Below are positions 3,001-45,669 of a DNA stretch of 64,000 bases, one piece after another (within the stretch, counting starts at the first letter, position 1; each line of letters starts with the position of its first letter). The notes beneath the pieces were generated by a model. That model was not told where the DNA came from and did no database searches. It saw only the letters and a program-made list of their open reading frames with translations. The DNA is from Yuukianura sp. NJ FZ-2021. Lineage: Eukaryota. A program made the translations under genes and the position numbers. The stretch is taken from contig CM102286.1 in NCBI GenBank assembly GCA_046563655.1, forward strand, positions 6,758,001 to 6,822,000. The letters are read 5' to 3'.

Positions 3001-4393
3001 GGGATGTATGACTATGTACTTGTTCCCTCTGCGTTATTCATGCAAAGCCCTGAACATGCCCAGCATACTTAAGGCCTCCTTGTACAATTACTTACTCACA
3101 CTTGTCCTTCCTCAGCAGTTCCCATAGCAGTAGAGATCCAAGGGAGACTTTTTGACTAAGGAAAGGAGCTCTATACTCCGCAAAAGTACTGGGGTACTGG
3201 AAGTCCTACATCCAAAGTAATGCTTTACATGGTCCAAGTATTTCTCACTTTGACTCTGCAAGATTCCAGCGCAAGATAGGCTACAATATCCTACGAGTCG
3301 TGCTATGGAAACTTCGAGTAGCCATTCTAGCCCATAGATCTCCACTTAAGGACGGCGGAAGGAGGCAGCGGCTGAGATCCAGATTCTTTCTGAGAGTGCA
3401 AAATTGATGCTTGCCTTTGGTGGCGCCGGTGGAACGTGGAATGCCTTTACAATTTCCCTGCCATTACCCACGTATATAATATAAAACCAATTCTGGTAAA
3501 GTGGCCAGTTTACCCGCCTTACGAAACGGAGCATTTCATTCTTCACCATTTTGCAAAGACCTTTTAGACTTTCGGTGAAACCGATATGTTTTTTTTCACC
3601 TTGAGCTTAGGCACTGAAAAGAAGAGTGATGTGGAGTCATTTGGGAATTTGAATATTTGAGTCGTTTCAGCAAATTTGCAAACATATACTGTACTACAGG
3701 TTTCTTTTACGGAGCAGAGCATGTTTGTATAGTGTAGGCGCCCCCTTTAACATGAACTTGTAGCTAATGAAGCAGTTGGCGTGGTCAAATGCAGCGATCT
3801 AGAAACTTGAGCTGCGGCGAGCGGTATAAATGGACTTGAAAGCCTTTTTCTTGAAATAAAAGCTTCATTCCGACGTTTGTTTCCTTTATCTCCGGGATCT
3901 CCGTCCTCCTGACTCTTGAGATGAATGGACTTTCTACGAAACAGAGTACTTTGCAATAAAGTGTGAAAAATGAAAGTTCACCGGACTTTCTCTCCAAGTA
4001 CCATTTGTATACGCGGAATGGCAGTAAGCCTGCTTGTGAAATTCGACTCCAAATCTCTTTTAAAAAGAAATGGCAAAAAAGCGAAGTCCAAATTGGGGAA
4101 ATGGTTTTCATCTTATGTGTATTGACTGATGTGTGAGATGGAAACGCCTTGGGGTTTGAATTCCAAGAAGCAAAAAAATGCTGAAGAAACAGTTTAATCG
4201 AAGGCAATTGAGCGGGGAGAAAGTAAAGTAAATTGAAAGTAAAGAGTAGCCAGTAGGAGTAAATAGCCTTTGACAAATAAAGGTTAATTAGCAGTTGTGA
4301 GAGAAAGTTTAGGGAAAATGAGGGGGTTGAAATTAGGACCTTATCACCTCCAGTAACAAAAGAACTAACATTTTCTATTTGAAATTGTTACAG

Positions 4394-19494: not shown

Positions 19495-20118
19495 TCACTT
19501 GTCTTCGCACCATTCATTTTCTTTGCGGACTTGCTCTTCTTCGGCAGGGGTGAAATCGTTTTTAATGTTAAACGTTTTCCGAATCTCCTCCGGACTTTTA
19601 CCCTTAATCATATTGGCAACGGTTTTGCAAGTTACATCAAGCAAGGCCTTTATGTCAAGGTAATTTGCTGCCTGAAGAAGAAACCAGATACAAAGTTGTG
19701 TTACTCAAGTAAAGAAAGTTAACTTTTAGCGAAACAACTTACGAGGATGATTTCGAAGAGCATTCCTTGATCCACCTTGAGAAAGTCTGCATCCCAACTG
19801 CTCACATCATCAGTGCGTTTCTCTTTGATCTCATCCTCTTCAGGCACAGGCAGATCATCCTGCCAATCAAAGATCGTAATTAGTAAAACGCCGGTGAGTT
19901 ATTGAGAAACATATCATATTAGGTACCTTGTGATGTGCTGCCCATTGGAGAACCTTGTTGAGAATTGCAGAATTGACATTTGCCAAGGGGATCACTTCTT
20001 CGCCATCGTCCATTCCTAGGTCCTCCAACATTGTTCGAATTGTAGCTGAACATCGAATCACTTGCGTGTCCACTGTGAACGTTTCACCATCCGAACTTTC
20101 CAATTTTATTAGAACCAT
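19495..20118 (-). CDS. Skp1: S-phase kinase-associated protein 1 (SCF subunit)
   Basis: Exons 20118-19927, 19859-19743, 19671-19495. [86 protein letters not shown]. Confidence 0.96.
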
Positions 20119-20292
20119 TATTTTTCGTACAAGAAACAGAAACGTTTTTATAATCGTTTAAATTTTTTGTTTTCGTCTCCCGAAATTTATTTTTATGCAA
20201 TTTAAAATTTTTGAGATGCAGCCAAATTTTTCAAGAAGTCTATGTGAGTAAATTTTGTCACGTTTAAGGAGATATTAGAATTGTACCGTGTA

Positions 20293-20362
20293 AGCTAGAT
20301 TTAGACGGAAAGGCAGGGTGTACTATTAATAGTACACCCGGCATTTCCGTCTAAAAATAGCT
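20293..20362. repeat. 70-bp near-perfect palindrome
   Basis: Arms 20293-20327 and 20328-20362 match at 31/35 positions with no spacer; the central GGGTGTACTATTAATAGTACACCC (20316-20339) is a perfect palindrome. Confidence 0.85.
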
Positions 20363-22597: not shown

Positions 22598-22834
22598 AAG
22601 GAAGCCAAGGAAGGCATGTAACGAGCGCGGAGGATTCCAACAATGTCCTCCGTCAGCAAAACGTTTTAAATATGTTTTATATTTTTTTTATTCATACAAT
22701 GTTTTGGCATAATTTAGTATAGGTAGGAGCGATAGTATGTAAAACTGCATGTTTACCTGTATACGAAGCTAAAAAACATAATGAGTATGCGTATAAACTA
22801 AAGGAAGACGGTTTGTACTGCAATTCAAAGCTTC

Positions 22835-23315
22835 TCACTTTGAACTTTTGCAAGTTGTGTATGGTTGTCCAATATATTTCTCCCAAACACGCTTAGTCAT
22901 AAACACCCGCCAAAAAGCAGAGTACCAGTGACTCCCGGACTGTTTAGCACGTTCCAGGAAAATGTCATCGGCTTCCCACAGTTCTTCAAGGGTGTACATA
23001 TGTGGTTCGGAATAAACGAGATCATGCTCTCGACAGGCCCAGTCCACTTCTGTCAAGGGCCCATGGAGTTTGTCCATCGCAGTCACGTTAGTCCCTGGAC
23101 CACAGTATCTGTGTAGAACAAATGCAATAACATGTTCAATTTAAGTTTCAAACCAAGTTCTAACTATTGGCGGGAAAATTTTAAAATCCAAACCTGGTGC
23201 CATAATAAGTAAATACTAATCCGTGAGTCCAGTCGTAATATATGAATTCTACGGCTGCGTACACGCGCAAGACAGATGTAAAAACTAGAGAAGTGATTAC
23301 GAATGCGAGATTCAT
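22835..23315 (-). CDS. Secreted phospholipase A2 of the parvovirus VP1u/adintovirus type, 131 aa, one intron
   Basis: Exon 1 23315-23194 (MNLAFVITSLVFTSVLRVYAAVEFIYYDWTHGLVFTYYGTR, signal-peptide-like), 85-bp GT-AG intron, exon 2 23108-22835 (YCGPGTNVTAMDKLHGPLTEVDWACREHDLVY...EADDIFLERA). Has a Ca-binding loop YCGPG and a catalytic HD motif. Confidence 0.8.
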
Positions 23316-24201: not shown

Positions 24202-26262
24202 ATGGAAATTAAACCAGTAAAAGAAGTAGAAGACATAGAAAGCAAAAATTGCGAAACCGAAGTATTTTTAGAAAAAGAACAAGGGGACAATGACATTGAA
24301 GAGTACAAAATTCCGTGCGTATTGGTTAATAGGAACGAAATGGACAAAAGTAATGGAAAACTTTCTCCCGTCCTGTTCGTGACCCAGGTCAAACCAGATC
24401 CAAAGAAGGTTGAACGAACAGGATGGAGACGCTACATTGGAATCCTGTTGGGTAATACATTTTTGTAATGGAATCATTTTTTCAAAGCAGCAAGTGCTTT
24501 TGTCTAATTATTTAAATTGTGATGTTAATTTTGGCTTCTTTTTGCAGCTCTGTGGTCCTGTCTATTTTTCAGTCTTTGTATTTTGATTGTCAAATACTTG
24601 AGACACAAAATCGGGCCGGCATCATTCGGTGTTTATCGATTTGCGGGTGTTCTGTTCTCTCTTCCTGTCCTCCTCTATTACCGATTCATCATGAAAGCCA
24701 AAGTTTTCCAACCGATTTGGCCGCTTACTTTGGAACATCCAGATAAAATCAAATCGGCCATTGTGCTTTTGGTAAAGTTTAATGCATTTGTCACCTAAAA
24801 TAATTTAAATGCTTTTTGGAATATTTTGAGCAACCTTTGTATGAATAGATACGAGGGATTGCTGGCGCCAGTGCAATTTTGTTACAATATTATGCAGTTG
24901 GTTACATACCTATTGCAAGTGCCACCACAATCACATTCAGTACACCGATTTTTGTTGGACGTGAGTCATTTTTAATAAACGATTTACTCTTGTGAGTATT
25001 TTTTGAATGTAAATTTATTTCTTTATAAAGTGGCCGCATGGATATTTCTTGGAGAAAAGTGCGGTATTGTTCCAACTTTTGCAGGTTTGTTGTACTTTCG
25101 CATTCTATTTACTGTCAATTCTGATTGCTGAAGATTAATCACAGAGAATTGGCATTATGATTCAAGTTTTGTTTTTAAATGGACACAGCTTTAATAACCT
25201 TGGCGGGTGTGATCGTCACTGCGTGTTTTGTACCTGATGAAAATGGGGAAGCCATAACTTTCAATGATCAGCTTGTAAGAAATAGCTCTTCAAAGTATTG
25301 CCCCTAAAAGCATCAAAGTCAGAAGTTTGTTTTCGCATTATGTATAAAAATTTCGTTTTCAGATTGGTGGTGCTATGGCTTTTGCCTCCATGATTTTTTC
25401 AAGTTCCGTATTCATCATGCTGCGTTACCTGCGACGTCTCCATTTCAGTATTGTCACAACGGCATTCGGTATAGTTGGGCTCATACAATCTGCAGTGCTC
25501 TGTGCTGTGATTGGAAAGTTTGACGTTCCAGATTCGTTGTGGGAATGGTCCTTAGTTATCGCCGTAGCGCTCCTAACACTTCTCAGTCAAACGTTTATGA
25601 CGTGCGCCTTGAAATTTGAAGATGCAGGTTAGTCTATGCAGCCCATAAATTATTAGGAAATTAACAGTTTAACTATTGGGAAAGGTGAAACAATAATGAA
25701 AACGTTCCTCCTTATTTATAAACTCGTCTATTTCTTATTTATCGAAGCACCGAATTGTCATATCTTATTGCTGTTGTGTACAAATTTAACGCAGGGATTA
25801 ATTTTGTGGTTGATTAAACTATTTTCCTAGCTTCGATAGCGTCATGAAGTCACATAACACAAAAATATCAAAAGGCGTTATAGTAGTTGTGGAAAAAAAT
25901 ATAGCAGTTCGATACCCTGTTAGTGACTTTTGTGAACAAAGGATTGACTATTTAAATAGTAACATTTTCTGTTTTGATTTAGGTCCAATTGCCCTGGTTC
26001 GGACAGCAGATGTGGTAAATATTATAATCTCGATTAAAATCTTCAATAGATAGAGTCTTTCACTAAAAATTGGATTTGGTTTTTTCAGGTTTTCTCCTTT
26101 CTTTGGCAGTACATGTTCTTGGGAGTTGATCCAGATATTTTGACAAGCTTGGGAGCACTGATCGTTTGTTTTGGAGTGGCAGTGACGGCCTTCAGGAAGT
26201 ACGTCACTACGCTCCCTCATGAAAATCAAACCAGGAAGACGTTCGCTTTCATGTTAAAATAA
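24202..26262 (+). CDS. SLC35G1-like EamA/DMT transporter
   Basis: Exons 24202-24451, 24548-24771, 24849-24960, 25031-25084, 25189-25274, 25363-25627, 25983-26014, 26089-26262. About ten hydrophobic segments; motifs IRGIAG..YYAVGYIPIASATTITFSTPIFV..AWIFLGEKCG and ALKFEDAGPIALVRTADVVFSFLWQ. Confidence 0.88.
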
Positions 26263-26957: not shown

Positions 26958-28227
26958 ATGGATAGCATTGACCTACAGAAAGTTCCAAAATTCCAGATTC
27001 CAACGGTAATCATTTAGTGTGACAATTTTAATAGTGTTTAGTATGTTTTACTTAACTGAATCTTGATTTTAGATTGACCTTGATTCAGAATTTGATGTCC
27101 TTCAAGTCGTCGGAGAAGGATGGTTTACAAAAGTGTTTCTAGTTGAACACCGTAAAACTCGTAACGAATTTGTTCTCAAAGGAATTCCCAAAGAATCGAC
27201 TACTGCCGAAGAATTTTTGCGCGAATTTCATTGGAGCTATGCTCTGGGTGTACGAGAGGGTGGAAAATCAATAGTTAAAACGTTTGACATTTTATTTGCT
27301 GCAGAGGACTGCTACTTTTTTGCACAAGAATTTGCCCAGTTTGGTGACCTTTCCACTAATATTTCAGACATTGGGATTGGAGAGATTTATTCCAAGAAAG
27401 TGGGAAGGCAACTTGCTGGAGCACTTGACTTTCTACATGACCAAAATCTTGTTCACCGGAATGTTAAACTCGATAACGTCCTCATCTTTAGCAGTGACTT
27501 TTCCAGAATAAAGTTGGGTGACTTTGGATCCTGTTGCAACAAAGGAGCATGCGTGAATCGATTTAACGAATGGGTTCCACAAACTCCGCCAGAGATTTTG
27601 ATCATTCCGCAAGAAACGCCGTATTCCGTCCAGCCCCACCATGATACTTGGCAGTTTGGCATACTGATGTTCCTCTGCCTAACAGGTATGAAATGACATA
27701 TTTGTACCAGAATCATTTTTTGTTACTTAGAATTCAGCTGTATACAAATTTTGGCATGTATTTGAATAGGTTGTATTCCATGGCAAAAGGCAGAGCGTCA
27801 CTCGGACCCTAAATTTGAAAGTTTCGATCTCTGGTGCAAAAGTCGGATTATGAAAACGCCGAAACCTTTCAAAATTCTTTCAAAGAAAGGGAGGCGTCTC
27901 TTCCGGAAACTTCTGGAAATAAACCCGGACAAACGTGTTGGAGAATCCCTAAAACCAGAGATTGAAAAATACTTTGAAGACAAATGGCTTACCAAGTTAC
28001 CGGAACGACCAGCGGAAGAAGAGGATTTAATGACAAACGTGTCCATGCTTAGCTTTCATTCTTCATTGACGGACAAGAATCGACTGCTTGGAGCTCTGAC
28101 GCGGTTTGGAATCGAAACAACAGTTGATCGAGACCTCAAGAAAAATCGAATCAAAGAATGGATCGCCACCAGCACCGTTCTTGAAGAGGAGGAAGAGGAC
28201 GAGGGCATTGCGGATGAAAATTTATAA
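26958..28227 (+). CDS. SBK1/meng-po-family Ser/Thr kinase-like protein (catalytic loop HRN)
   Basis: Exons 26958-27005, 27073-27685, 27770-28227. GEGWF, VLK, EFLREF, FAQEFAQFGDL, HRNVKLDN, FSRIKLGDFG, PPE, DTWQFGI..CLTGCIPWQKA, and the C-terminal FGIETTVDR..K..RIKEWI typical of the family. Confidence 0.88.
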
Positions 28228-29404: not shown

Positions 29405-30496
29405 TTTAAGAAACACGCCAACAGCCGTAACACTGCAAATTGGTTATTAAAACTGATGGGAGCTTCTGTTGTATAGTTAATTTATATGTTAGCCAAATTG
29501 TCAGTAAATCTTTCGTTCCATGGTTGACTAACAGTCCAAAGCGTCAGACGAACTTGAGCAAGTTGTACTCAACTATAAGTACTAGTCTGAAAATATTATT
29601 TAATACAAATACCAATTCAAAGACGTATTATTTCAAATGTTACTTATTACTACTTAACTTATTCTGTCAATCTGGTTACGACAATTAGAAAATATCACAA
29701 GAAAGTCGTGTATTCAGGCGTAGTCATTGAGATATCTCTGTTGGAGATGTTGTTTTAGAAATAATAACTTCGTTTCATAGAATTTTAAAATTGAAGGTGA
29801 TTTCCTGTTTCCGGCGTTTGATATTTACCCTTGAATCTGGTTCACACCTTGGTTTGAAGCCTTGTGGAGTGTTATTATTGTTTTCCATTTTGTTTCAAAT
29901 TGATTACTTATCATTATCAACTTAACGTCAAACGATTAAAATCTCCAACACGAAGGTTTATTTCTGCCAGCCAATCCATCTTCATCAGAAAGACTCCATA
30001 AAGTGGTGAGGCCATGTTCCTGTCAAAAAAATATTTACTTTCCCACACCTAACGATCTGTTCAACTATTCAATTGTGTAGAGAAAAATATGATTTGACTT
30101 CGACCTTGCGTCACATTTTTGCGCATTTTGAACATGATTCTGTCGTAAGTGCTTTTCCGCGAGCCACGCCCATAAGTTCAATCATTCTGTCACTTGGAAT
30201 TTCTTCATTCGATTTTGTGTCTCCAAAAATATTATTTGATGGTTGCACTTTGTGAGAAAAATTAAAGTAAAAGAAACTAGAAAATACAACGCCTATTCTG
30301 GCCTAGCTACTACTTTACCAAACTAATAAGTTCTTTCAGTGTTATTCACCAGTTCATCGTTTCTTTCACGGTGGAAACACAAACGGCACCGTTTATCGAA
30401 ATGGTGAAAGCAATTCTTTGAAAACGAGAGTTTGGTGAAAACAAGTGGTGAAAGTATTAGACAAAGGAAATTCTACAAAAGTATTCTAATTTCGAT

Positions 30497-32437
30497 ATGA
30501 AGTGTTGTAGATTAATTTTTGCAGTATTAATTACTACTTCCCAAAGTGTCAACACTATAAGTACTTATAATCAGGCAATACAAGAAGTAACTTCACAAAT
30601 AACTGAATCAACGCGATGCTCCGTTGTCCATTTATTGCACAGGAACAAGTTACCGGATTTGTTCCCAAAGGTTGGAGTTCTGCCTCAATTGATTACATTA
30701 GTTGCTGACAAAGAAAGCGCATCTATGCCTTCGTTTTTTGACAAAGTACACACTGTGAATGATATACTTACACCCACCAGCTATGGAACATTACGCCATT
30801 CAGCGAGCTGTGTTGCACATCTATTGTTATTTCAAGCTGAAGACTATCAATTCAACGTAATGTCCGCCGTCGAATCAATCTTATGGCGAAAATTAGCGAG
30901 GCCATTGAACGACATTTTCTTTTTTGTTGGACCTGAACATGAAATAAACTTGTTCGCTCGGAGTCAACATGGCGGCGACATTCGTTTCAAGTACGGTATA
31001 TTTCCAACTACTGGGCATGTACAATACTTCGACTATTGCCGAAACCTACCTAGATTACCGACGAATCTTTTCCGGAGAGATTGCGACAGTGTCCTAAGAG
31101 GACGCAACTTAATTGCGACTTCCGTGAAGCACATAGCAAAGCTCCGTTACGAAAATAATCCGGACGGTAGTTGGAAAACCGGCGGTGGTGTTTACTTTTC
31201 ACTGCTGAAGGAGGCCAGTCTACGATACAATTTTACATTCAGCATTTCTTATGCCAAATATAGCGGCGCTGCTGGGTTTGTGCAGAACGGTACTTGGTAT
31301 GGAGCCGTGGGAGAAGTATTCAAACGTGAAGCTGATTTGGCCTTCGGCACGGGCATAACCCTTGACCGATATTTTGTAGTTGACCCGTCAGTGACACTTT
31401 CATATTTTGCTCGAGCATTCTTTGTGAGTACCCCTCGAGTGTCCAGTAGCTGGAGGTCAGTTTACCGACCTCTGCTACCTCCCATTTGGGGAGCTCTTTT
31501 GTTGACCATGATTGTGGCTGTTCCAGTATATTATGCTGTCGCAAAATCTTACAACGGATGGAGAGCTCTTCATTCTGGAGTTGATATGTTTTTGTTAGCT
31601 GAAGTCCTAGGAACACTTTGGCAGATTTTACTGGAACAGAGTATTTCTTTTTGGACCTGGAAGGGGGTTCGAATCAAAAGTCTCCTCATCCTGTGGGCAT
31701 TCAGTTCCCTTGTTCTAGGAACTGGCTACCGGACCAAATTGGTTTCATTTATGACTTCAAGGGTCAAAGAAGTCTATCCAAGGACACATGAGGAGCTGAG
31801 CTTGTCAAGTTACACGATCTACTTCAGATACTATGGTGGAATTCCGTACCGCCACTTGGTTGATTCACAGGATCCCACCCATAAACGATTACTACAAAAA
31901 ATTATACTGGTGAACTCATCTATCGAATGTGTTATTAACTCAATTCTGACAGACCATGCAGCGTGTATGGATTTCAAATTAACTTCGGAGTATGTTATTG
32001 GAACAAACGCCACGTTATATGCTCATGCGCAGAATGAAATGCTTGTACCATCCGACGATACAGACGTTGTTCTGAATCTTGTCCTGTCTTTCAGGAAGGG
32101 CTCTCCGCTCATTGAGTCATTTAATTCGTATATTCTTGCTTCTCTGGCGGCTGGAATGACTGACCAATGGATGAAAAACGACTTCGTTGAACAGAAAATA
32201 ATCGGGGCGAAATGGCTGAGAAGCCAAAGCCACTCAAACATCCGAAGCAGAATCGAATCACTACGAACAACTAGTACTGCAAAACCTCTCTACTTCTCTG
32301 ACATGATTGGAGCATTTGGTATTTGCTCATGCGGGATTATAATTGGCTTGTCTATATTTATTTTGGAGATGATGTATACAAAGATAAAGAAACAACAATA
32401 CTGGTTTCCACAAATTGAAGCATCGATGAAAATGTAA
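30497..32437 (+). CDS. Divergent ionotropic receptor (IR, iGluR-related chemoreceptor), intronless, 646 aa
   Basis: Signal peptide; S1 (NGTWYGAVGEVFKREADLA..ITLDRY); M1 (YRPLLPPIW); pore LLEQS; M2 (LWAFSSLVLGTGYRTKLVSFMT); S2 ending FRKGSPLIESFN; M3 (PLYFSDMIGAF...FILE). Confidence 0.9.
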   Translation: MKCCRLIFAVLITTSQSVNTISTYNQAIQEVTSQITESTRCSVVHLLHRNKLPDLFPKVGVLPQLITLVADKESASMPSFFDKVHTVNDILTPTSYGTLRHSASCVAHLLLFQAEDYQFNVMSAVESILWRKLARPLNDIFFFVGPEHEINLFARSQHGGDIRFKYGIFPTTGHVQYFDYCRNLPRLPTNLFRRDCDSVLRGRNLIATSVKHIAKLRYENNPDGSWKTGGGVYFSLLKEASLRYNFTFSISYAKYSGAAGFVQNGTWYGAVGEVFKREADLAFGTGITLDRYFVVDPSVTLSYFARAFFVSTPRVSSSWRSVYRPLLPPIWGALLLTMIVAVPVYYAVAKSYNGWRALHSGVDMFLLAEVLGTLWQILLEQSISFWTWKGVRIKSLLILWAFSSLVLGTGYRTKLVSFMTSRVKEVYPRTHEELSLSSYTIYFRYYGGIPYRHLVDSQDPTHKRLLQKIILVNSSIECVINSILTDHAACMDFKLTSEYVIGTNATLYAHAQNEMLVPSDDTDVVLNLVLSFRKGSPLIESFNSYILASLAAGMTDQWMKNDFVEQKIIGAKWLRSQSHSNIRSRIESLRTTSTAKPLYFSDMIGAFGICSCGIIIGLSIFILEMMYTKIKKQQYWFPQIEASMKM

Positions 32438-39010: not shown

Positions 39011-40163
39011 GAATTCTTGCAGAAGATCTTGGTTGTTGATGCTACTGCTGGCCAAAATGCGCTTCAGAAGCCCATTCGGAATCATGTCGAATAATTCCCC
39101 AGTGCCAGCCAAGGTAGTGGATTCCATACTATGGTAGAAGTAGAGTCAAAGCCTCTTAAGAAGAAACAAACTTTTGTGCTTTTCAAACCGAATCCTAAAA
39201 ATCTTGATCCAGCTCGTAAGAATTCATTTGAGTAACTTTTGCAAGAAGCAACCCGAAACTTCAACTTCTTTTTTTTTCCTTTTTAAAATTTCATCTACTT
39301 TTAGAATATGGAGTAGCATAGAAAAGGAATAATATTCACGTACAGAATTAAGCACGCACTTTTACTTTACTTCCATTCATCCTTTTGTAAACATTGCACA
39401 TTGAATTTGTTCAACTTCCGGCAATTTACCAGCCTCGTAAAGTCCACACTGAAACAAAAATTCTGTCAAGGCTTTTTCATTTTTCTGCGTCACTGAAACA
39501 GTCAAACACAAAAGTCAGACGGCGATAGATGTGAAAATGATGAAAAATTTAGAATTCCAAAATTGATTTTTTTCTTTTTGGAAATTCATCAAGGAACGAG
39601 GTGAAAGTAAGCCGTAGATTGCTTTTCATTCGCTCATCACAAAATTCTTAAGGCACGAAAACGATAAAAACCGTACGGACTTACAATTTAGTAGAATAAC
39701 TTTTTTTTAGTAATTAAAGAAAATTAGAGTTTTGCTAAACTCTGAACTCATCTTCATGTTATGGAAGGAGCAGTGCGTAAGAAGTCCAACTTAAATTTAA
39801 ATTTTGGGAAACATTTTGAAAGACGCATTTCGTTTAACGAACATTACATATGAAAACGACTGCCTGAATAATTAGCATTGACTCATCGCATCTAGAATTT
39901 ACAAAGTGCTAACTCGTGTAAGTAAGTTTGCGTTGGGATTGAATTGAGGCTGGTGAGAATGAGATTGAGAGGGATTGTGAATTTGGGAGGAATGTCCAAA
40001 TACGGCAAAATCACCTCCCTTCTCATATCCCTCAATCCACTCCAGTACCAGCTCAGCTGTTACAAGGGTAACAGCATCAACAATCCACCATCAACCAATT
40101 AAGTCAACCAGTGTCCATGCCAAGTTAGCTCCAGTCATCAACTACTTCGTCACAATCACTACA

Positions 40164-43100
40164 ATGCAAAGTCTAGACGCAACTACCCGTCCACCATCCT
40201 TCTCCGCAATGTTGTCAGCAGGAAGTGATCCTTGCTTCGGAGGAGATCACGGAGGACATCACGACTTCTCAACACTCAACGGATCTTCGGCCGGGTCAAA
40301 TCCAAATGGACAGACCGAATTCGGACATCTTATGAACAGCACCCAGCAACACCATCATCACCATCACCACTCCCATCATCCAGAAACAAATAATAACAAC
40401 ACAAATGCAGCCAATCACAACAGCAATCCGTCCAAACCGAAGAAAGTACCACCGCCTAATGGGAAGAAGACCAAGGGCCGGGTCAAGATCAAGATGGAGT
40501 TTATTGATAACAAGCTGAGGCGCTACACTACATTTTCTAAACGCAAGACTGGCATCATGAAAAAGGTAAGATTAAGCTGATTCTCTATGTAATGAAAAAT
40601 TTACTTTTTAGTTGAGGTTTTTAAATTTCAAGCTTTCCGGGTTGTGAAAAAATTATGGCATGCTTGGTCGGTGAATCACTTTAGCATAGGTTTAGAAATT
40701 GAACATTAACTTGCTTTGTTTCAAAACGTTGTCAGGATCAGTTCATCAGATCAGCATTAAATCAGCATGAAAATCTTTCGATAATTTTGCCATCCCATTT
40801 AAAATATGATTTTTTGAATTGACCCGGGAAATCTCTCTTCAAAATTAGTACTAGAAATATAAAAAATTAGTTCACTGATCAGACTCGAGTTAAGAATAAT
40901 TCCATAACTCCATTATGCAGTTATGTGTGTTTTTATTTAAAAAAAAAGTGATATGCTGTCTGCGGAATGACAGTGTAGCGACATAATATTTGTAGTGAGG
41001 ATTAGAATTAGAAAGCATGCGCTTATTCGAGAGAAATTACGAGGAGTACCGGAGTATTTTAACTAGGGTTGCCCCGATACATCGGTTGGCCGATACATAT
41101 AGGCCTATTCTTGGCCTGTTTTTTAGAATAGGTGGATCGGCCGAAAAATGTTTTGGCCAGTTAAACTGGCCAGTTTTTACCTATTCTTTTTACTCAGAAA
41201 TTTATAAAAAATTTCACGAATTTCATCGAAAAATACTGAACTAACAAATTATAAACAAGATTTAGCTAACCTAGGATGCTGTTTTCGGTATTTTATGTGA
41301 ATAATTAGTCAAAAGAAAGTAGTTAAAACGGTATAAAAGGTTAACTAATTCAAATTACACAAGTGAGCACTTAATTCCCAATTTAAAAAAACATCACAGA
41401 ACGACGCCGAGTCATCTGTGGGTATTGCTGTGTAGGAAAAAAAACCGGCCGATGTATCGGCCGATGTATAGGTTTGCCTGTTCTTGGATTTGGAAAAAAA
41501 TAGGTGTATCGGGTATCGGCCAAACCAAGAATCGGGGCATCCCTAATTTTAACAGTGAATCTCTCTACTGATTCAATGTAAATTCAGTAAGATTTTTAGT
41601 CCTAGTGCTAGTGCTACTGCTACCGACTACGCTGAAACATTCGAGTGCAACACCAGAGGGAGCTTAAAACTGACTGTGAATCTAGAGCTCCATTTTAATT
41701 GCACCCGCTGGAAGTATTTAACAAGTTAGTTATATGACTTGATTTTACAAAATCAAAATTCTATCAATTTCTTTCATCGTTCGGCATTAACCATAACAAC
41801 ATTGTTTAAGCTTGGTCTTTGGAGCGCTGCAGATTTAGACTTGACACCGAAACAACTCACAGCATCATACTTTACTAACTAAAACTACCTGAAGTATCCT
41901 TTTAGTATTTGAATTTGATTGAAAACACACAAAAATGGGAAACCCACCTAGGAATCTTTTTCTTAAAAAATTCCTATTCCACACTTTTCTTAAATTTTAA
42001 ATTAAATGTTGTTGGTACATATTTCCCAAATATTAAATACTAGTGTTTAATTTTGAGTCCTCAAGTTTCACTTTCACCTGTCATCCAGGCAAGAACTATT
42101 TCATTTCCAGTGGATGTAAATGATTTGTGACAAGGATTGAATTCGCGAGTAGTACAGTAGTGGTGAGCGTGACCCAGAAGTTAATCTCTGTTAAGAATCG
42201 GCTCCAGCTAATCTCTTGCGTCTCTGCTGGAGGAATTCAAGTTAAATTGATTTCTGTCTTAGACATTTCCTTCTACTTGTTCTAAAACAAAAAACAACAC
42301 ATAAACCTGTAACAAAATTGTTTGAAAATATTTTTCAACCTGAGAAAAAAAGATTTTTTCTGATATGAGACTACTACAACCGAATGTAGCATTTGGGGAA
42401 AAAAAATCTAAACTTAGTTTTGTCCGAAAAATCAAAGATTCGACGAAGAACCACAAATTTTCTAAAAGCCAAGCCGAACCTTCAATCTCGCAAACAATTC
42501 TCTCCAAATACTCCACACGGAAAAAAAATTGTTTTAGCATAGCACATTTTATAATGCTGCATCGTTTTACTAAAAAAAAATTAAACTTTAACACAAACGC
42601 GTTTGGGTGAAAAATTTCTTTTCTTTTCTTTTTTGACTGGAAGAGGGAAGTCTTTGGATGAAAGAAAAATTTTTATATTTAGTCTATACCCCATTCTTTG
42701 TTTTATTGTAATAAAATGTGGATTGTGGAAGCAGTCGGAATTTAAAAGAAATTCAAGTTACACTGCAAAAGGAGTGTCTAGCTGGACACGCAATTTGGCG
42801 ATTTTAAAACTCGAATGTCTTTTTGGATATTTGAAAAAGTGAGCAGAAAAAAGACGTATATAGATGAAGAATATACATCTCACCTATTTATAACAAATTA
42901 CAATTACACATATTGAAAAATATTTTCTCGGGAAACTTTTTTTATGGATTGATTTACTCGATACTCCGAGATTTCATACATCCTCTTCTCCATTTTTATT
43001 TTTAAGATTTTCGGCTAACATAAAACTTTGGTCACTTTTTCTAATATGCGCCACAAATGAATGAATACTGCCATCGTAGCAAAGCACTAATTTTTGAGTT

Positions 43101-45669
43101 TGGGTGAAAATAAACCATTTCATTTCATTTGCCCAATATCTGACGTTACCGCAGTAGTCGAACTGTTTTAGAAAGATTGTTTCCAATCTCACTTCCGTGT
43201 TCCCGAGATTACGCAATCCTTGGATAAAGTCAACTTTAATTCTGAATTGACGAAGGTTGAGGATTCCCAGCATCACCCCAGCCACCTTCGCAGGAAATAC
43301 AATGATTGTAACATTGTAACAAAGTGTACCGTGGTCGTGTGTATTCCGTGCCAAGAACTCAAGTAAAAGTTGCCTATGTATGTGTAATGTTTTCGCTTTC
43401 AGGCACGCAGTGAGTCCGTCTCTTCTTTTTCCATTGTGATTTGATGTTGGGACATGTAATTGCTTGGTGAGAGGGAGCAGGGGCGCCACGCTCACCATGT
43501 GTTTCTTCCAAGGGCTCTACAGGTCAAAGGTCATTTCCCACATCAATTCTGACACGGTTTTTGCAATCTGCATTGCGGAAATAGGTTATGGTACAGTTTC
43601 CTCAAACTTTGGTTTATGGATTCTACAAGGAAATTGACATTGTTGTACCATACGTGTACATAAATGGAATCAGGACTCATTATTATCTCACCCATGCATC
43701 ATAAGCAATAGCTGAAAAAAACATCTCACACATTTGAGCAAACGGAGATTAAGATCTGTGTTGCAATTCAACAATGCATAAATATCTTAGGATTTCACGT
43801 ATACAATTTATACTAATGCCAACTCAGGATCTTGGAGACCTCAAAATTTCTTCGGTTTGTGTCATACAAGTACCGAAGAAAACTTTATTTCGAAAAAAGT
43901 GCAGAAGAAAGTAGAAAATTTGGTTGAATGGTGTTGCTGACGACGGAATGTCCTTCCGATTTCGTTGACATTGGGCGTGTGTCATGGCATTCTTAGAATT
44001 CGAAAAATACCCACTTTCTCGACGATTGACCACCAATTCTTTCCTGGCGGAAGTAACCTAATCTCAACCACTGCCGTCAACATTCTCATTCCAGCAGTAA
44101 CATAAAAAATCAGTTTTATGTGGGCAGAGTCAATAGTCATATCGCATGACAACCATAGAAAGTGGAGGGAGAAATGAATACCTGTCGTGTATGTCACTTT
44201 CACTTCTCCATCTTTCTTCCGCCTCACTTCAATCATACAGGTGACGATAACAGCTTATTACATTCCATGAGATGACAGTACCGGAAATTAAACATCCACA
44301 ACACACAGCAATTGCAGCAACATTGACGACATTGTGTCGACTTCTGTAAACTGGGATTTTAAATGTCATCCCGCCGGATTGTTCCCGCCTTGCAAACCTT
44401 TTGTTGTTTTTTGTGCACTGTTTATGCTTAAGTGGGTCCGTTTACAAGTTTACACCGCATACCGTAACGCTTTTGTTTGGAATTCGTTTATGGAGTTTTT
44501 TAGCCTTCCTTTATCTATATTTGGATTGATACCTAATACGTCCTTAGTTTATGGAGGGATTTGACCATATTTCTATTCTATGCCATGACCTTTCCGAATA
44601 ATTCTGTCATCTTCACAACAGCGATCAACGGGACTTTGATCTTTATGGTTTAAAGAGATTGAGATTACTTAATCTCGGATAGTAAATCAAAACAAACCTA
44701 CAAAAAACTAATTTGTCTGTGTAGTAGCTACTGTTTTGTTATTATGGTTCCTGTTTTAGAAGAAAATTTATTTTTGAGTACTTCAGAGTAACATGAAACA
44801 CACGAAAACACAAGGCAAATTGTATTGGAATTTTGAATTTTTTTGTGATCCGACAATGGGTGTTGAAATTTAGTTTTGAAGAAATCTTACATTTCAAGGG
44901 AGGTTGGACTATGAAATCTCTCAAGGAGGAGTTTTATTGTAAGATCAAAGAATTTAGTACATCAGTTAACGCCTACACAAACTGCACGCTAGTTAATACG
45001 ACCATCCCATTTTTTTTCTTGCTATGAATTTAATGTTTAGTAAACTACAGGTGAGGATAGCGTGTGTGGGTGAAAGTGGAAATTTTAATTCTGAGCATTG
45101 TTCTTCTTTGATTACCTTGACGTTTTACTTTGCAGGCCTATGAATTGTCCACTTTGACGGGAACTCAAGTGATGCTGCTCGTGGCATCTGAAACTGGGCA
45201 TGTCTACACGTTTGCCACGCGCAAACTCCAGCCGATGATTACTTCCGAGGCCGGGAAAGCCCTCATTCAAACATGCCTCAACTCACCGGATCCTCCGAAT
45301 TCAGGAGATGCTCAACGGATGTCAGCCACTGGTTACGAAGAGACGGAACTGACCTATGCTGCTGACCCCAATGGCTCTGATCATGGTGACACAAAAGTAA
45401 GACTTACCTCTTCCCCATATTCCAATGCACAATCACAGTCCCTTGCCCCACTTCATCATTCCCACTCAGCATCCATGTACGGATCACCGTTAAATAATAG
45501 TTATCACTCGAGTCCTGGTGTCATAAGTTCAGGCGGCATGATATTCCCGCACAGCCCGTCACCCAATGGAATGCTCTACCACTACGCCTCGGATCCGCAA
45601 CCTCCGCAATGCTATCCCAGTGGACTTCATTCCCCCACACCCCCGCATTTGACACACCTCACCCGGTGA
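40164..45669 (+). CDS. SRF: Serum response factor (blistered), short isoform
   Basis: Exons 40164-40565 and 45136-45669. SRF-type MADS box GKKTKGRVKIKMEFIDNKLRRYTTFSKRKTGIMKK|AYELSTLTGTQVMLLVASETGHVYTFATRKLQPMITSEAGKALIQTCLNSPD. Confidence 0.96.
41064..41545. mobile_element. hAT-type MITE (482 bp) in SRF intron 1
   Basis: 15-bp TIRs TAGGGTTGCCCCGAT / ATCGGGGCATCCCTA (1 mismatch); perfect 8-bp TSD ATTTTAAC at 41056-41063 and 41546-41553; subterminal CCGATACA/TGTATCGG motifs. Confidence 0.9.

Follow-up and report, generated by a model that had tools for sequence, protein, structure and literature searches.

Within a 64,000-nucleotide stretch of DNA from Yuukianura sp. NJ FZ-2021 (NCBI GenBank assembly GCA_046563655.1, contig CM102286.1, positions 6,758,001 to 6,822,000 of the forward strand; hereafter the window, numbered from its first letter), a small gene on the minus strand is predicted to encode a phospholipase A2 (PLA2) of the kind carried by virus particles. 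We consider it likely that this is a maintained two-exon springtail gene and that its product is an exported, Ca2+-dependent, virion-type PLA2, and slightly more likely than not that the gene derives from a virus. Parvoviruses use virion PLA2 domains as entry tools, and adintoviruses and Polintons carry them in accessory genes. When copies turn up in the genomes of animals, they are mostly dismissed as viral fossils and automatically annotated as ‘capsid protein VP1’, and the PF08398 domains of arthropod genomes that are already in the databases are mostly unannotated or named ‘VP1-like’.

The gene lies on the minus strand and runs in two exons from an ATG at 23315 to a stop codon ending at 22835, with the following parts.

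23194..23315, minus strand: exon 1, 122 nt, comprising 40 codons and the first two bases (AG) of the codon for Arg41, and ending ...GGC ACC AG.
23253..23315, minus strand: signal-like segment, codons 1-21, a predicted signal peptide or signal anchor, judged by eye.
23109..23193, minus strand: intron of spliceosomal type, 85 nt, GT..AG, phase 2, GC 0.31, splitting an AGA Arg codon (AG/A).
22838..23108, minus strand: coding part of exon 2 (P0001), 90 aa and the last base of Arg41, containing the entire PLA2 domain.
23093..23107, minus strand: YCGPG, residues 42-46, the predicted Ca2+-binding loop motif YxGxG, common to all five sequences (5/5) of alignment A6.
23012..23026, minus strand: HDLVY, residues 69-73, with the predicted catalytic His, Ca-binding Asp and Tyr.
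22967..22969, minus strand: Asp88 (D47 of P0001), the conserved downstream Asp.
22835..22837, minus strand: stop codon TGA, present in the sequence.
22687..22692, minus strand: AATAAA, a candidate polyadenylation signal by sequence only, ~145 nt past the stop.

Splicing yields a coding sequence (CDS) of 396 nt that is free of internal stops and translates into 131 aa; read without splicing, the frame from the ATG meets a stop at codon 45, and another in-frame stop is found 4 codons 5′ of the ATG. An earlier, sequence-only reading of this DNA had placed a two-exon gene here, had noted that the track of open reading frames (ORFs) caught it only in part, and had quoted strings of a product with three Cys, all of which we could confirm. 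The protein contains the strings YYGTR/YCGPGT (the slash marks the exon junction), DWACREHDLVY, PLTEVDWACREHDLVY and EADDIFLERA, and its Cys are residues 43, 66 and 127, of which only Cys43 and Cys66 are conserved in the orthologue described below. Residues 1-21 are hydrophobic (Kyte-Doolittle 9-residue maximum of 2.6 over residues 3-11), with a possible signal-peptidase site after VYA (VYA/A), judged by eye; the predicted mature protein (residues ~22-131) would have a mass of ~13 kDa and an isoelectric point of 5.7. The composition of the gene is host-like, with a coding GC of 0.45 and a third-position GC (GC3) of 0.455, as compared to a GC3 of 0.36-0.47 in eight neighbouring exons. No second PLA2 copy was found within the 64-kb window by tblastn.

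In secreted PLA2s (sPLA2s), the main chain of the YxGxG loop and the Asp that follows the catalytic His together bind a Ca2+ ion, and this His activates a water molecule, aided by downstream Asp and Tyr residues. All of the residues that define this catalysis are present in the window protein (YCGPG at 42-46, His69, Asp70, Tyr73, and Asp88); His69 and Asp88 are each invariant in 14/14 aligned relatives, and Asp70 is nearly so. The N-terminal hydrophobic stretch would direct the protein into the secretory pathway, and the exported enzyme would be expected to cleave the sn-2 ester of glycerophospholipids in a Ca2+-dependent manner. Its role could conceivably be in digestion, in defence, or in the remodelling of membrane or surface lipids. 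Cys43, in the loop, and Cys66, just before the catalytic His, may form a single loop-to-helix disulfide, since their positions correspond to those at which the Ca loop is linked to the catalytic helix in other sPLA2s.

We assign the domain to the Cys-poor virion type (PF08398) and not to group III, mainly because of its Pfam score and motifs; the fold search agrees, albeit weakly. When exon 2 was compared with Pfam by hmmscan, PF08398 (Phospholip_A2_4, the type found at the N-terminus of parvovirus VP1) gave a match with an E of 4.7e-7 that spans positions 10-67 of the 80 in the profile; its 30.4 bits exceed the curated gathering cut-off, which is 23.9 bits. The match of exon 2 to PF05826 (group III; cut-off 22 bits) was below threshold, at 16.6 bits (E 0.009), and spanned only residues 1-33 of exon 2. 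The same pattern was seen for the orthologue, which passed for PF08398 (25.1 bits) and failed for PF05826 (16.4 bits). A phmmer search of 1.84 billion representative proteins returned only 10 matches at E <= 0.001, namely P0003 (a fragment, 69 % identical), five longer or fragmentary proteins of 33-43 % identity (P0004-P0007 and P0012), two spider-genome proteins (Uloborus and Oedothorax), the 528-aa unnamed protein P0011, and P0008, a low-complexity false match. Seven of the ten exceed the PF08398 cut-off, and P0011 alone also passes that of PF05826. A profile of the nearest relatives recovered 7 proteins from 3,686 candidates in a collection of 5.8 billion. No ordinary animal sPLA2 or group III protein was present among the 10 phmmer matches or the 7 matches to the profile of clade G1, which is described below. 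Other searches returned little: there was no match for exon 2 among PDB sequences, only non-significant rows in PDB for the G1 profile (the best, at E 0.58, being residues 49-82 of adeno-associated virus (AAV) VP1), none in PHROGs for P0001, P0003, P0013 or P0011, and none among phage records by tblastn. A word-index search with the single sequence was also blank, though P0003 is in that collection, and we give this result no weight.

Structure prediction points in a similar direction. An AlphaFold2 (AF2) model of exon 2, built from a 14-row alignment (pLDDT 81, pTM 0.71), has helices at residues 8-13, 20-33 (with the HD motif), 40-56 (with the conserved Asp) and 62-79 in exon 2 numbering. In a fold search of BFVD, 40 of the 50 rows listed were structural proteins of parvoviruses or densoviruses, and three more were a PLA2-like protein of a baculovirus, one of an entomopoxvirus, and a coat protein of a circular virus. 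A wide search with VIA-align was uninformative, its best match (Z 7.0) being a designed helical protein; rice PLA2 (2wg7) ranked 18th there (Z 5.1, root-mean-square deviation 3.5, 76 aligned), tied with unrelated helical bundles.

Evidence that the gene is maintained comes from a second species. A metagenome contig of 4,160 bp (L001) carries a PLA2 gene with its ATG at 3085, a 122-nt exon 1, and an exon 2 that ends at 3557; its intron (80 nt, GT..AG) lies at the same codon position and in the same phase as in the window gene. The two loci are regarded as orthologous because the upstream neighbour gene is colinear (L001 754-2298 and window 24379-26253, in at least 7 tblastx blocks; tblastx/blastn). 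The window protein (131 aa) and its orthologue (130 aa) are identical at 81 of 125 aligned residues. Conservation is uneven: the segment AVEFIY.D...GLVFTY.GTRYCGPGT (residues 22-41 and the Ca loop) is nearly identical in both, and residues 1-21 retain their hydrophobic character with 8/21 identities. The exons are conserved and the intron sequence poorly so (52 identical of 94 aligned columns). By the Nei-Gojobori method, non-synonymous divergence (dN) was 0.265 and synonymous divergence (dS) was ~2.0, which is saturated; dN/dS, therefore approximate, was 0.13 for the gene as a whole, 0.106 across residues 22-125, and 0.33 within the signal part. In DNA contigs of runs X1 and X4, 9 variant sites are listed, 7 of them in the CDS, where six are synonymous and the seventh alters the last residue. 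On this comparative evidence, the two-exon springtail PLA2 gene is real and selectively maintained.

The closest relatives of the window gene and its orthologue form a clade, G1, that also comprises P0004, P0005, P0006, P0016, P0007, and P0012/P0013. One member is from the springtail Folsomia candida (XP_035715957.1 / OXA41305.1, the latter named automatically ‘Capsid protein VP1, partial’); the others are from short contigs. Members of G1 share a C-terminal helix, K..[FWY]E...G..YT, which the viral forms lack. A G1 profile scores members at 109-144 bits over the full length of the profile, as opposed to at most 54 bits for all other PLA2s, mostly over the first 55-73 positions (51-54 bits for the group of the spider-genome proteins and P0011; 36-40 bits for the Polinton group). 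In a phylogeny computed with IQ-TREE (34 rows, 91 columns), which had neither a cellular sPLA2 outgroup nor group III sequences, the window gene and its orthologue grouped together (99/94) inside G1 (90/77), the Polinton clade was separate (88/70), and the spider-genome proteins and P0011 formed a further clade (97/89). After G1, the next nearest relatives are the PLA2s of Polintons/adintoviruses, of small single-stranded DNA (ssDNA) viruses, and of spider genomes.

Some members of G1 have features of their own. Its long forms P0005, P0007, and P0013 continue past the PLA2 domain with a W..W.G.C helix, an acidic/Pro-rich linker, and a beta-rich domain that starts CR[IV][IV]INE...F.E...CP. This C-terminal domain gave no Pfam match at E up to 10, no PDB-sequence match and no usable ESM Atlas match, and its AF2 model reached a pLDDT of 48; a resemblance to lamin-tail-like domains was considered and dropped. 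At least one such fusion to a virus-type PLA2 is encoded in a springtail genome, that of F. candida. There is no trace of it in the window or in L001, where tblastn with the longer relatives matches the PLA2 part only. In P0004, which is from an ENA contig, the catalytic HD is replaced by HE. The same protein reads ...LFVICR before YCGPG, which resembles a translated polypyrimidine tract and CAG acceptor at the position of the window intron, and this suggests that P0004 may share the window gene's intron.

Relatives of the domain in viruses are abundant. A pattern scan of IMG/VR with a mixed alignment gave 92 matching stretches, from which 20 loci were confirmed by tblastn; Pfam was then run on 71 of the 125 listed ORFs, and all but one of the 20 PLA2 ORFs scored above the cut-off for PF08398. 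Their surroundings are diverse.

L002-L005, L008, L011-L013 (8 loci): PLA2 adjoins Polinton/adintovirus hallmarks, namely rve integrase, Pox_A32 ATPase, PolB, and double jelly-roll (DJR) capsid protein.
L006 (1 locus): ORF layout as in the eight Polinton/adintovirus loci.
L014, L018 (2 loci): Rep_1.
L016 (1 locus): Rep of the CRESS (circular Rep-encoding ssDNA) type and helicase.
L020 (1 locus): RNA-dependent RNA polymerase (RdRP) and trypsin-like protease.
L021 (1 locus): S-domain coat protein.
L007, L009, L010, L015, L017, L019 (6 loci): no recognisable neighbour.

The eight relatives of Polinton/adintovirus type are 34-40 % identical to the window PLA2 over 55-75 residues. The PLA2X protein of adintoviruses has been described as the same PLA2 module in double-stranded DNA viruses of animals, in a passage of a paper whose authors elsewhere speculate that viruses and venoms have exchanged PLA2s (Starrett et al., 2021, PMC8502044). 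Two of the loci are on apparent RNA-virus contigs: an ORF at 4941-6098 of L020, with a sub-threshold PF08398 match (20.3 bits), lies downstream of a trypsin-like protease and RdRP_1, and a PF08398 ORF at 137-958 of L021 (27.7 bits) directly precedes the S-domain coat protein. It would seem that the virion PLA2 module passes among virus realms that differ widely. A further sequence, P0019 (388 aa, from a Logan contig), combines a strong PF08398 match (49.8 bits) with weak matches to Adeno_PX (E 0.16) and to an adenovirus/Ulp1-type protease (E 0.02-0.1), as though an adintovirus PLA2X and an adenain-like protease had been read as one or were fused.

Viral descent is the simplest reading of the window gene, because G1 is extremely sparse and viral members of the family are abundant. 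The balance tips slightly toward an old event, in which an arthropod or springtail ancestor may have captured a virus PLA2 module that then took on a host-type structure and was inherited vertically. A more specific course can be offered tentatively, at somewhat less than an even chance: a virion PLA2 of Polinton/adintovirus or parvovirus type would have been converted into an exported host enzyme, with an intron, a signal sequence, and purifying selection in deeply diverged species, and the long forms of G1 would be a sister host family from the same capture.

However, several observations weigh against a maintained, exported, virus-derived enzyme. Five sequencing rows from 2 studies cover the locus, all of them DNA, and the gene model is a prediction. 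The orthologue comparison involves one other species only (n=1), at a dS that leaves dN/dS approximate. In the tree, G1 meets the Polinton, spider-genome, and small ssDNA-virus groups in a polytomy. The patterns by which the 20 IMG/VR loci were found (YCGPGT.. and D..CR.H.) favour Polinton-type sequences and miss parvoviruses of the YLGPG type. Four other IMG/VR scans, one for close relatives of the window gene and its orthologue and three for the long forms of G1, found no G1-type protein, which is weak evidence because such pattern searches see only fairly close relatives. Structural and feature searches are also equivocal. The best BFVD row has a probability of 0.99 and a TMq of 0.59 but an E of 0.053, with none reaching 0.001; in Foldseek against PDB, 0 of 38 rows reached E <= 0.001, the microbial and fungal PLA2s 8k1w, 7ygk, and 4aup appearing only at E 7-10; and the feature neighbours in ESM Atlas (score 0.91) are phage PLA2 clusters, not those of eukaryotic viruses. 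Lastly, the N-terminus has no basic n-region and has Arg17 inside its hydrophobic stretch, and the orthologue, which reads ...RVFMAVEF, has a poor signal-peptidase site at -1/-3, such that a signal anchor is possible.

The direction of transfer could have been the opposite. If G1 were an old cellular (arthropod) PLA2 lineage, from which viruses took their modules or with which they shared a common ancient pool, the gene would never have been viral; we regard this as unlikely. It would account for the host-type structure, composition, and synteny of the window gene, for the separation of G1 from every viral group in the tree, for the extra C-terminal helix, and for the lack of G1-type sequences in the four IMG/VR scans aimed at them, and the speculation in PMC8502044 on exchange between virus and venom PLA2s, as worded in that passage, is compatible with it. 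However, 10 matches in 1.84 billion proteins, and 7 with the G1 profile, are too sparse for an old and broad family. Moreover, every relative outside G1 is viral or is a spider-genome protein grouping with the 528-aa P0011, and PF08398 is overwhelmingly viral in the 50 BFVD rows listed.

Whether the enzyme leaves the cell is a separate question. An uncleaved signal anchor, or some other targeting signal, might hold it on the membrane, as the missing basic n-region, Arg17, and the poor -3/-1 pattern of the orthologue would allow. Nevertheless, the hydrophobic core is short, with ~15 residues before Arg17, a length that suits a signal peptide better than a membrane span, and VYA/A is an acceptable cleavage site in the window protein; we consider retention on the membrane quite unlikely, and export as the better prediction.

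It is very improbable that the protein is a divergent ordinary group III sPLA2 that has lost most of its disulfides. The weak PF05826 match, which takes in the Ca loop and the helix with the HD motif, and the retention of the YCG.G and C..HD cysteines, would be in keeping with such an origin, but that match is below the cut-off in both species, no group III protein was among the 10 phmmer and 7 G1-profile matches, only 2 of the 3 Cys are conserved, and the helices past the HD motif align to PF08398, not to PF05826. Hardly more credible is the idea that the locus is a pseudogene or a silent remnant of an endogenous virus whose gene structure is accidental, which the small size of the gene and its partial calling by ORF finders (the P0003 ORF starts at an internal Met) might suggest, because the frame is intact only if spliced, and is so in two species with saturated synonymous sites, the intron has kept its position while its sequence diverged, dN/dS is 0.13 with catalytic residues kept, 6/7 coding variants are synonymous, and synteny is retained.

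The neighbourhood of the gene is made up of animal genes. A kinase exon at 27073-27696 is 66 % identical to its counterpart in Allacma fusca and 62 % to that in Orchesella cincta, both springtails, and ~53 % to those of insects; because this exon (one gene) best matches springtails, the source of the window should be a springtail, or else an animal very closely related to springtails. The PLA2 gene is flanked by two genes.

24379..26253, plus strand: EamA-like multi-exon membrane-protein gene, divergent from the PLA2 gene, with sub-threshold Pfam matches; it serves as the synteny anchor.
19498-20157, minus strand: Skp1 gene in two exons (Skp1_POZ 85.5 bits, Skp1 104.7 bits), ~2.7 kb downstream of the PLA2 gene and on the same strand.

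No recognisable ORF occurs in the 2.7 kb that separate Skp1 from PLA2, and this interval showed no similarity to the part of L001 downstream of its PLA2 gene. Other genes in the window encode the mitochondrial ribosomal protein uS5m, an SBK1-like kinase, a protein like ionotropic glutamate receptors/ionotropic receptors (iGluR/IR-like), an alpha/beta hydrolase, a glutaminyl cyclase (M28), SRF, and a rhodopsin-type G-protein-coupled receptor, and the flanking genes are ordinary animal genes. Among 50 ORFs of at least 55 aa in the interval of 19-27 kb, Pfam detected only Skp1 and the sub-threshold EamA, with no viral replication, capsid, polymerase, or integrase families; similarly, no capsid, NS1, rve, A32, PolB, or DJR domains were found in these 50 flanking ORFs or in the 13 large window ORFs scanned. 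Neither terminal nor inverted repeats bracket the PLA2 gene, and Rfam had no match in the window.

These results bear on the remaining proposals of the sequence-only reading. Its choice of a virus-type over a group III enzyme was borne out by the HMMER/Pfam comparison (30.4 bits for PF08398, above the cut-off; 16.6 bits for PF05826, below it), and the statement that no NS1, capsid, polymerase, or integrase gene is nearby holds for the 50 ORFs in 19-27 kb and the larger ORFs of the window. The intron it drew between 23193 and 23109 gained comparative support from the intron of the orthologue, identical in placement and phase, and the view that this is a host gene, for which synteny and dN/dS had been named as checks, agrees with a dN/dS of ~0.13 and with a neighbour that is conserved in L001. 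In its overall interpretation, the family assignment and the host context stood; viral capture, secretion, and enzymatic activity are carried forward here as proposals.

Three other features of the window are unrelated to the PLA2 gene. At 30461-32437 (plus strand), a single uninterrupted ORF of 658 aa has sub-threshold matches to the two halves of ionotropic glutamate receptors, Lig_chan-Glu_bd (24.4 bits) and Lig_chan (23.9 bits), and probably encodes a divergent chemosensory-type ionotropic receptor without introns. Two exons ~4.5 kb apart, at 39981-40580 and 45121-45669 (plus strand), each hold part of the SRF-type MADS box (profile positions 1-23 and 23-48, respectively), and the first of these exons bears long His and Asn runs. 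Just upstream of Skp1, a near-perfect palindrome of 70 nt (20293-20362) has 35-nt arms that are 89 % complementary, without a spacer.

Sequence, intron position, and neighbourhood are all conserved across two species with saturated synonymous sites, a pattern that marks a functional host gene. The novelty lies in a member of the virion PLA2 family that stands alone, bears an intron and a predicted export tag, and has evidence of long-term purifying selection and synteny, in a small clade with its own helix; we found no published description of such a gene in the open-access literature searched. If its origin is viral, the gene would represent a compact and clear-cut example, easy to assay, of a host that co-opted a membrane-active enzyme from a virus, and would bear on the exchange of PLA2s between viruses and venoms or secretions, an issue raised in a passage of PMC8502044. 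If it was indeed domesticated, it would be the first host-domesticated phospholipase of the VP1u/PLA2X type (VP1u, the VP1 unique region) to be described, within the open-access literature searched, and would offer a natural test of the published speculation on exchange between venom and viral PLA2s. Alternatively, if G1 is an old cellular lineage, it would constitute a new group of minimal, nearly disulfide-free secreted PLA2s of animals.

Among known systems, the VP1u PLA2 of parvoviruses and densoviruses resembles the window PLA2 in its PF08398 match, in the YxGxG, HDxxY, and downstream Asp residues, and in being a Cys-poor, small helical domain, and the VP1 proteins of these viruses are its best fold neighbours in BFVD. 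However, the window PLA2 is a stand-alone protein of 131 aa with an export-type N-terminus and an intron, it is not fused to a capsid protein (the ORF ends 5 residues past the PYT motif), and it has no NS1 nearby; it also has the extra C-terminal helix found only in G1, and it sits between host genes. AAV VP1 in particular has YLGPG and AREHD where the window protein has YCGPG and the cysteines of ACR.HD. The PLA2X of adintoviruses and Polintons shares with the window protein the signature YCGPGT...D.ACR.HD..Y, although the window PLA2 lacks the pX-like C-terminal domain, has no Polinton genes in its vicinity, and belongs to a separate clade in the tree.

The long forms of G1 are, apart from the orthologue, the closest relatives of the window protein, to which they are 31-41 % identical across the entire PLA2 domain, C-terminal helix included; unlike the window protein, they carry 150-400 extra residues, and none shows a signal-like N-terminus. 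Group III sPLA2s, of the bee-venom type, have many disulfides. They share with the window protein the Ca loop, the His-Asp chemistry, export (predicted in the case of the window protein), and a weak match that is sub-threshold for PF05826, but the window PLA2 is below that cut-off in both species and has 2 conserved Cys in place of their many disulfides.

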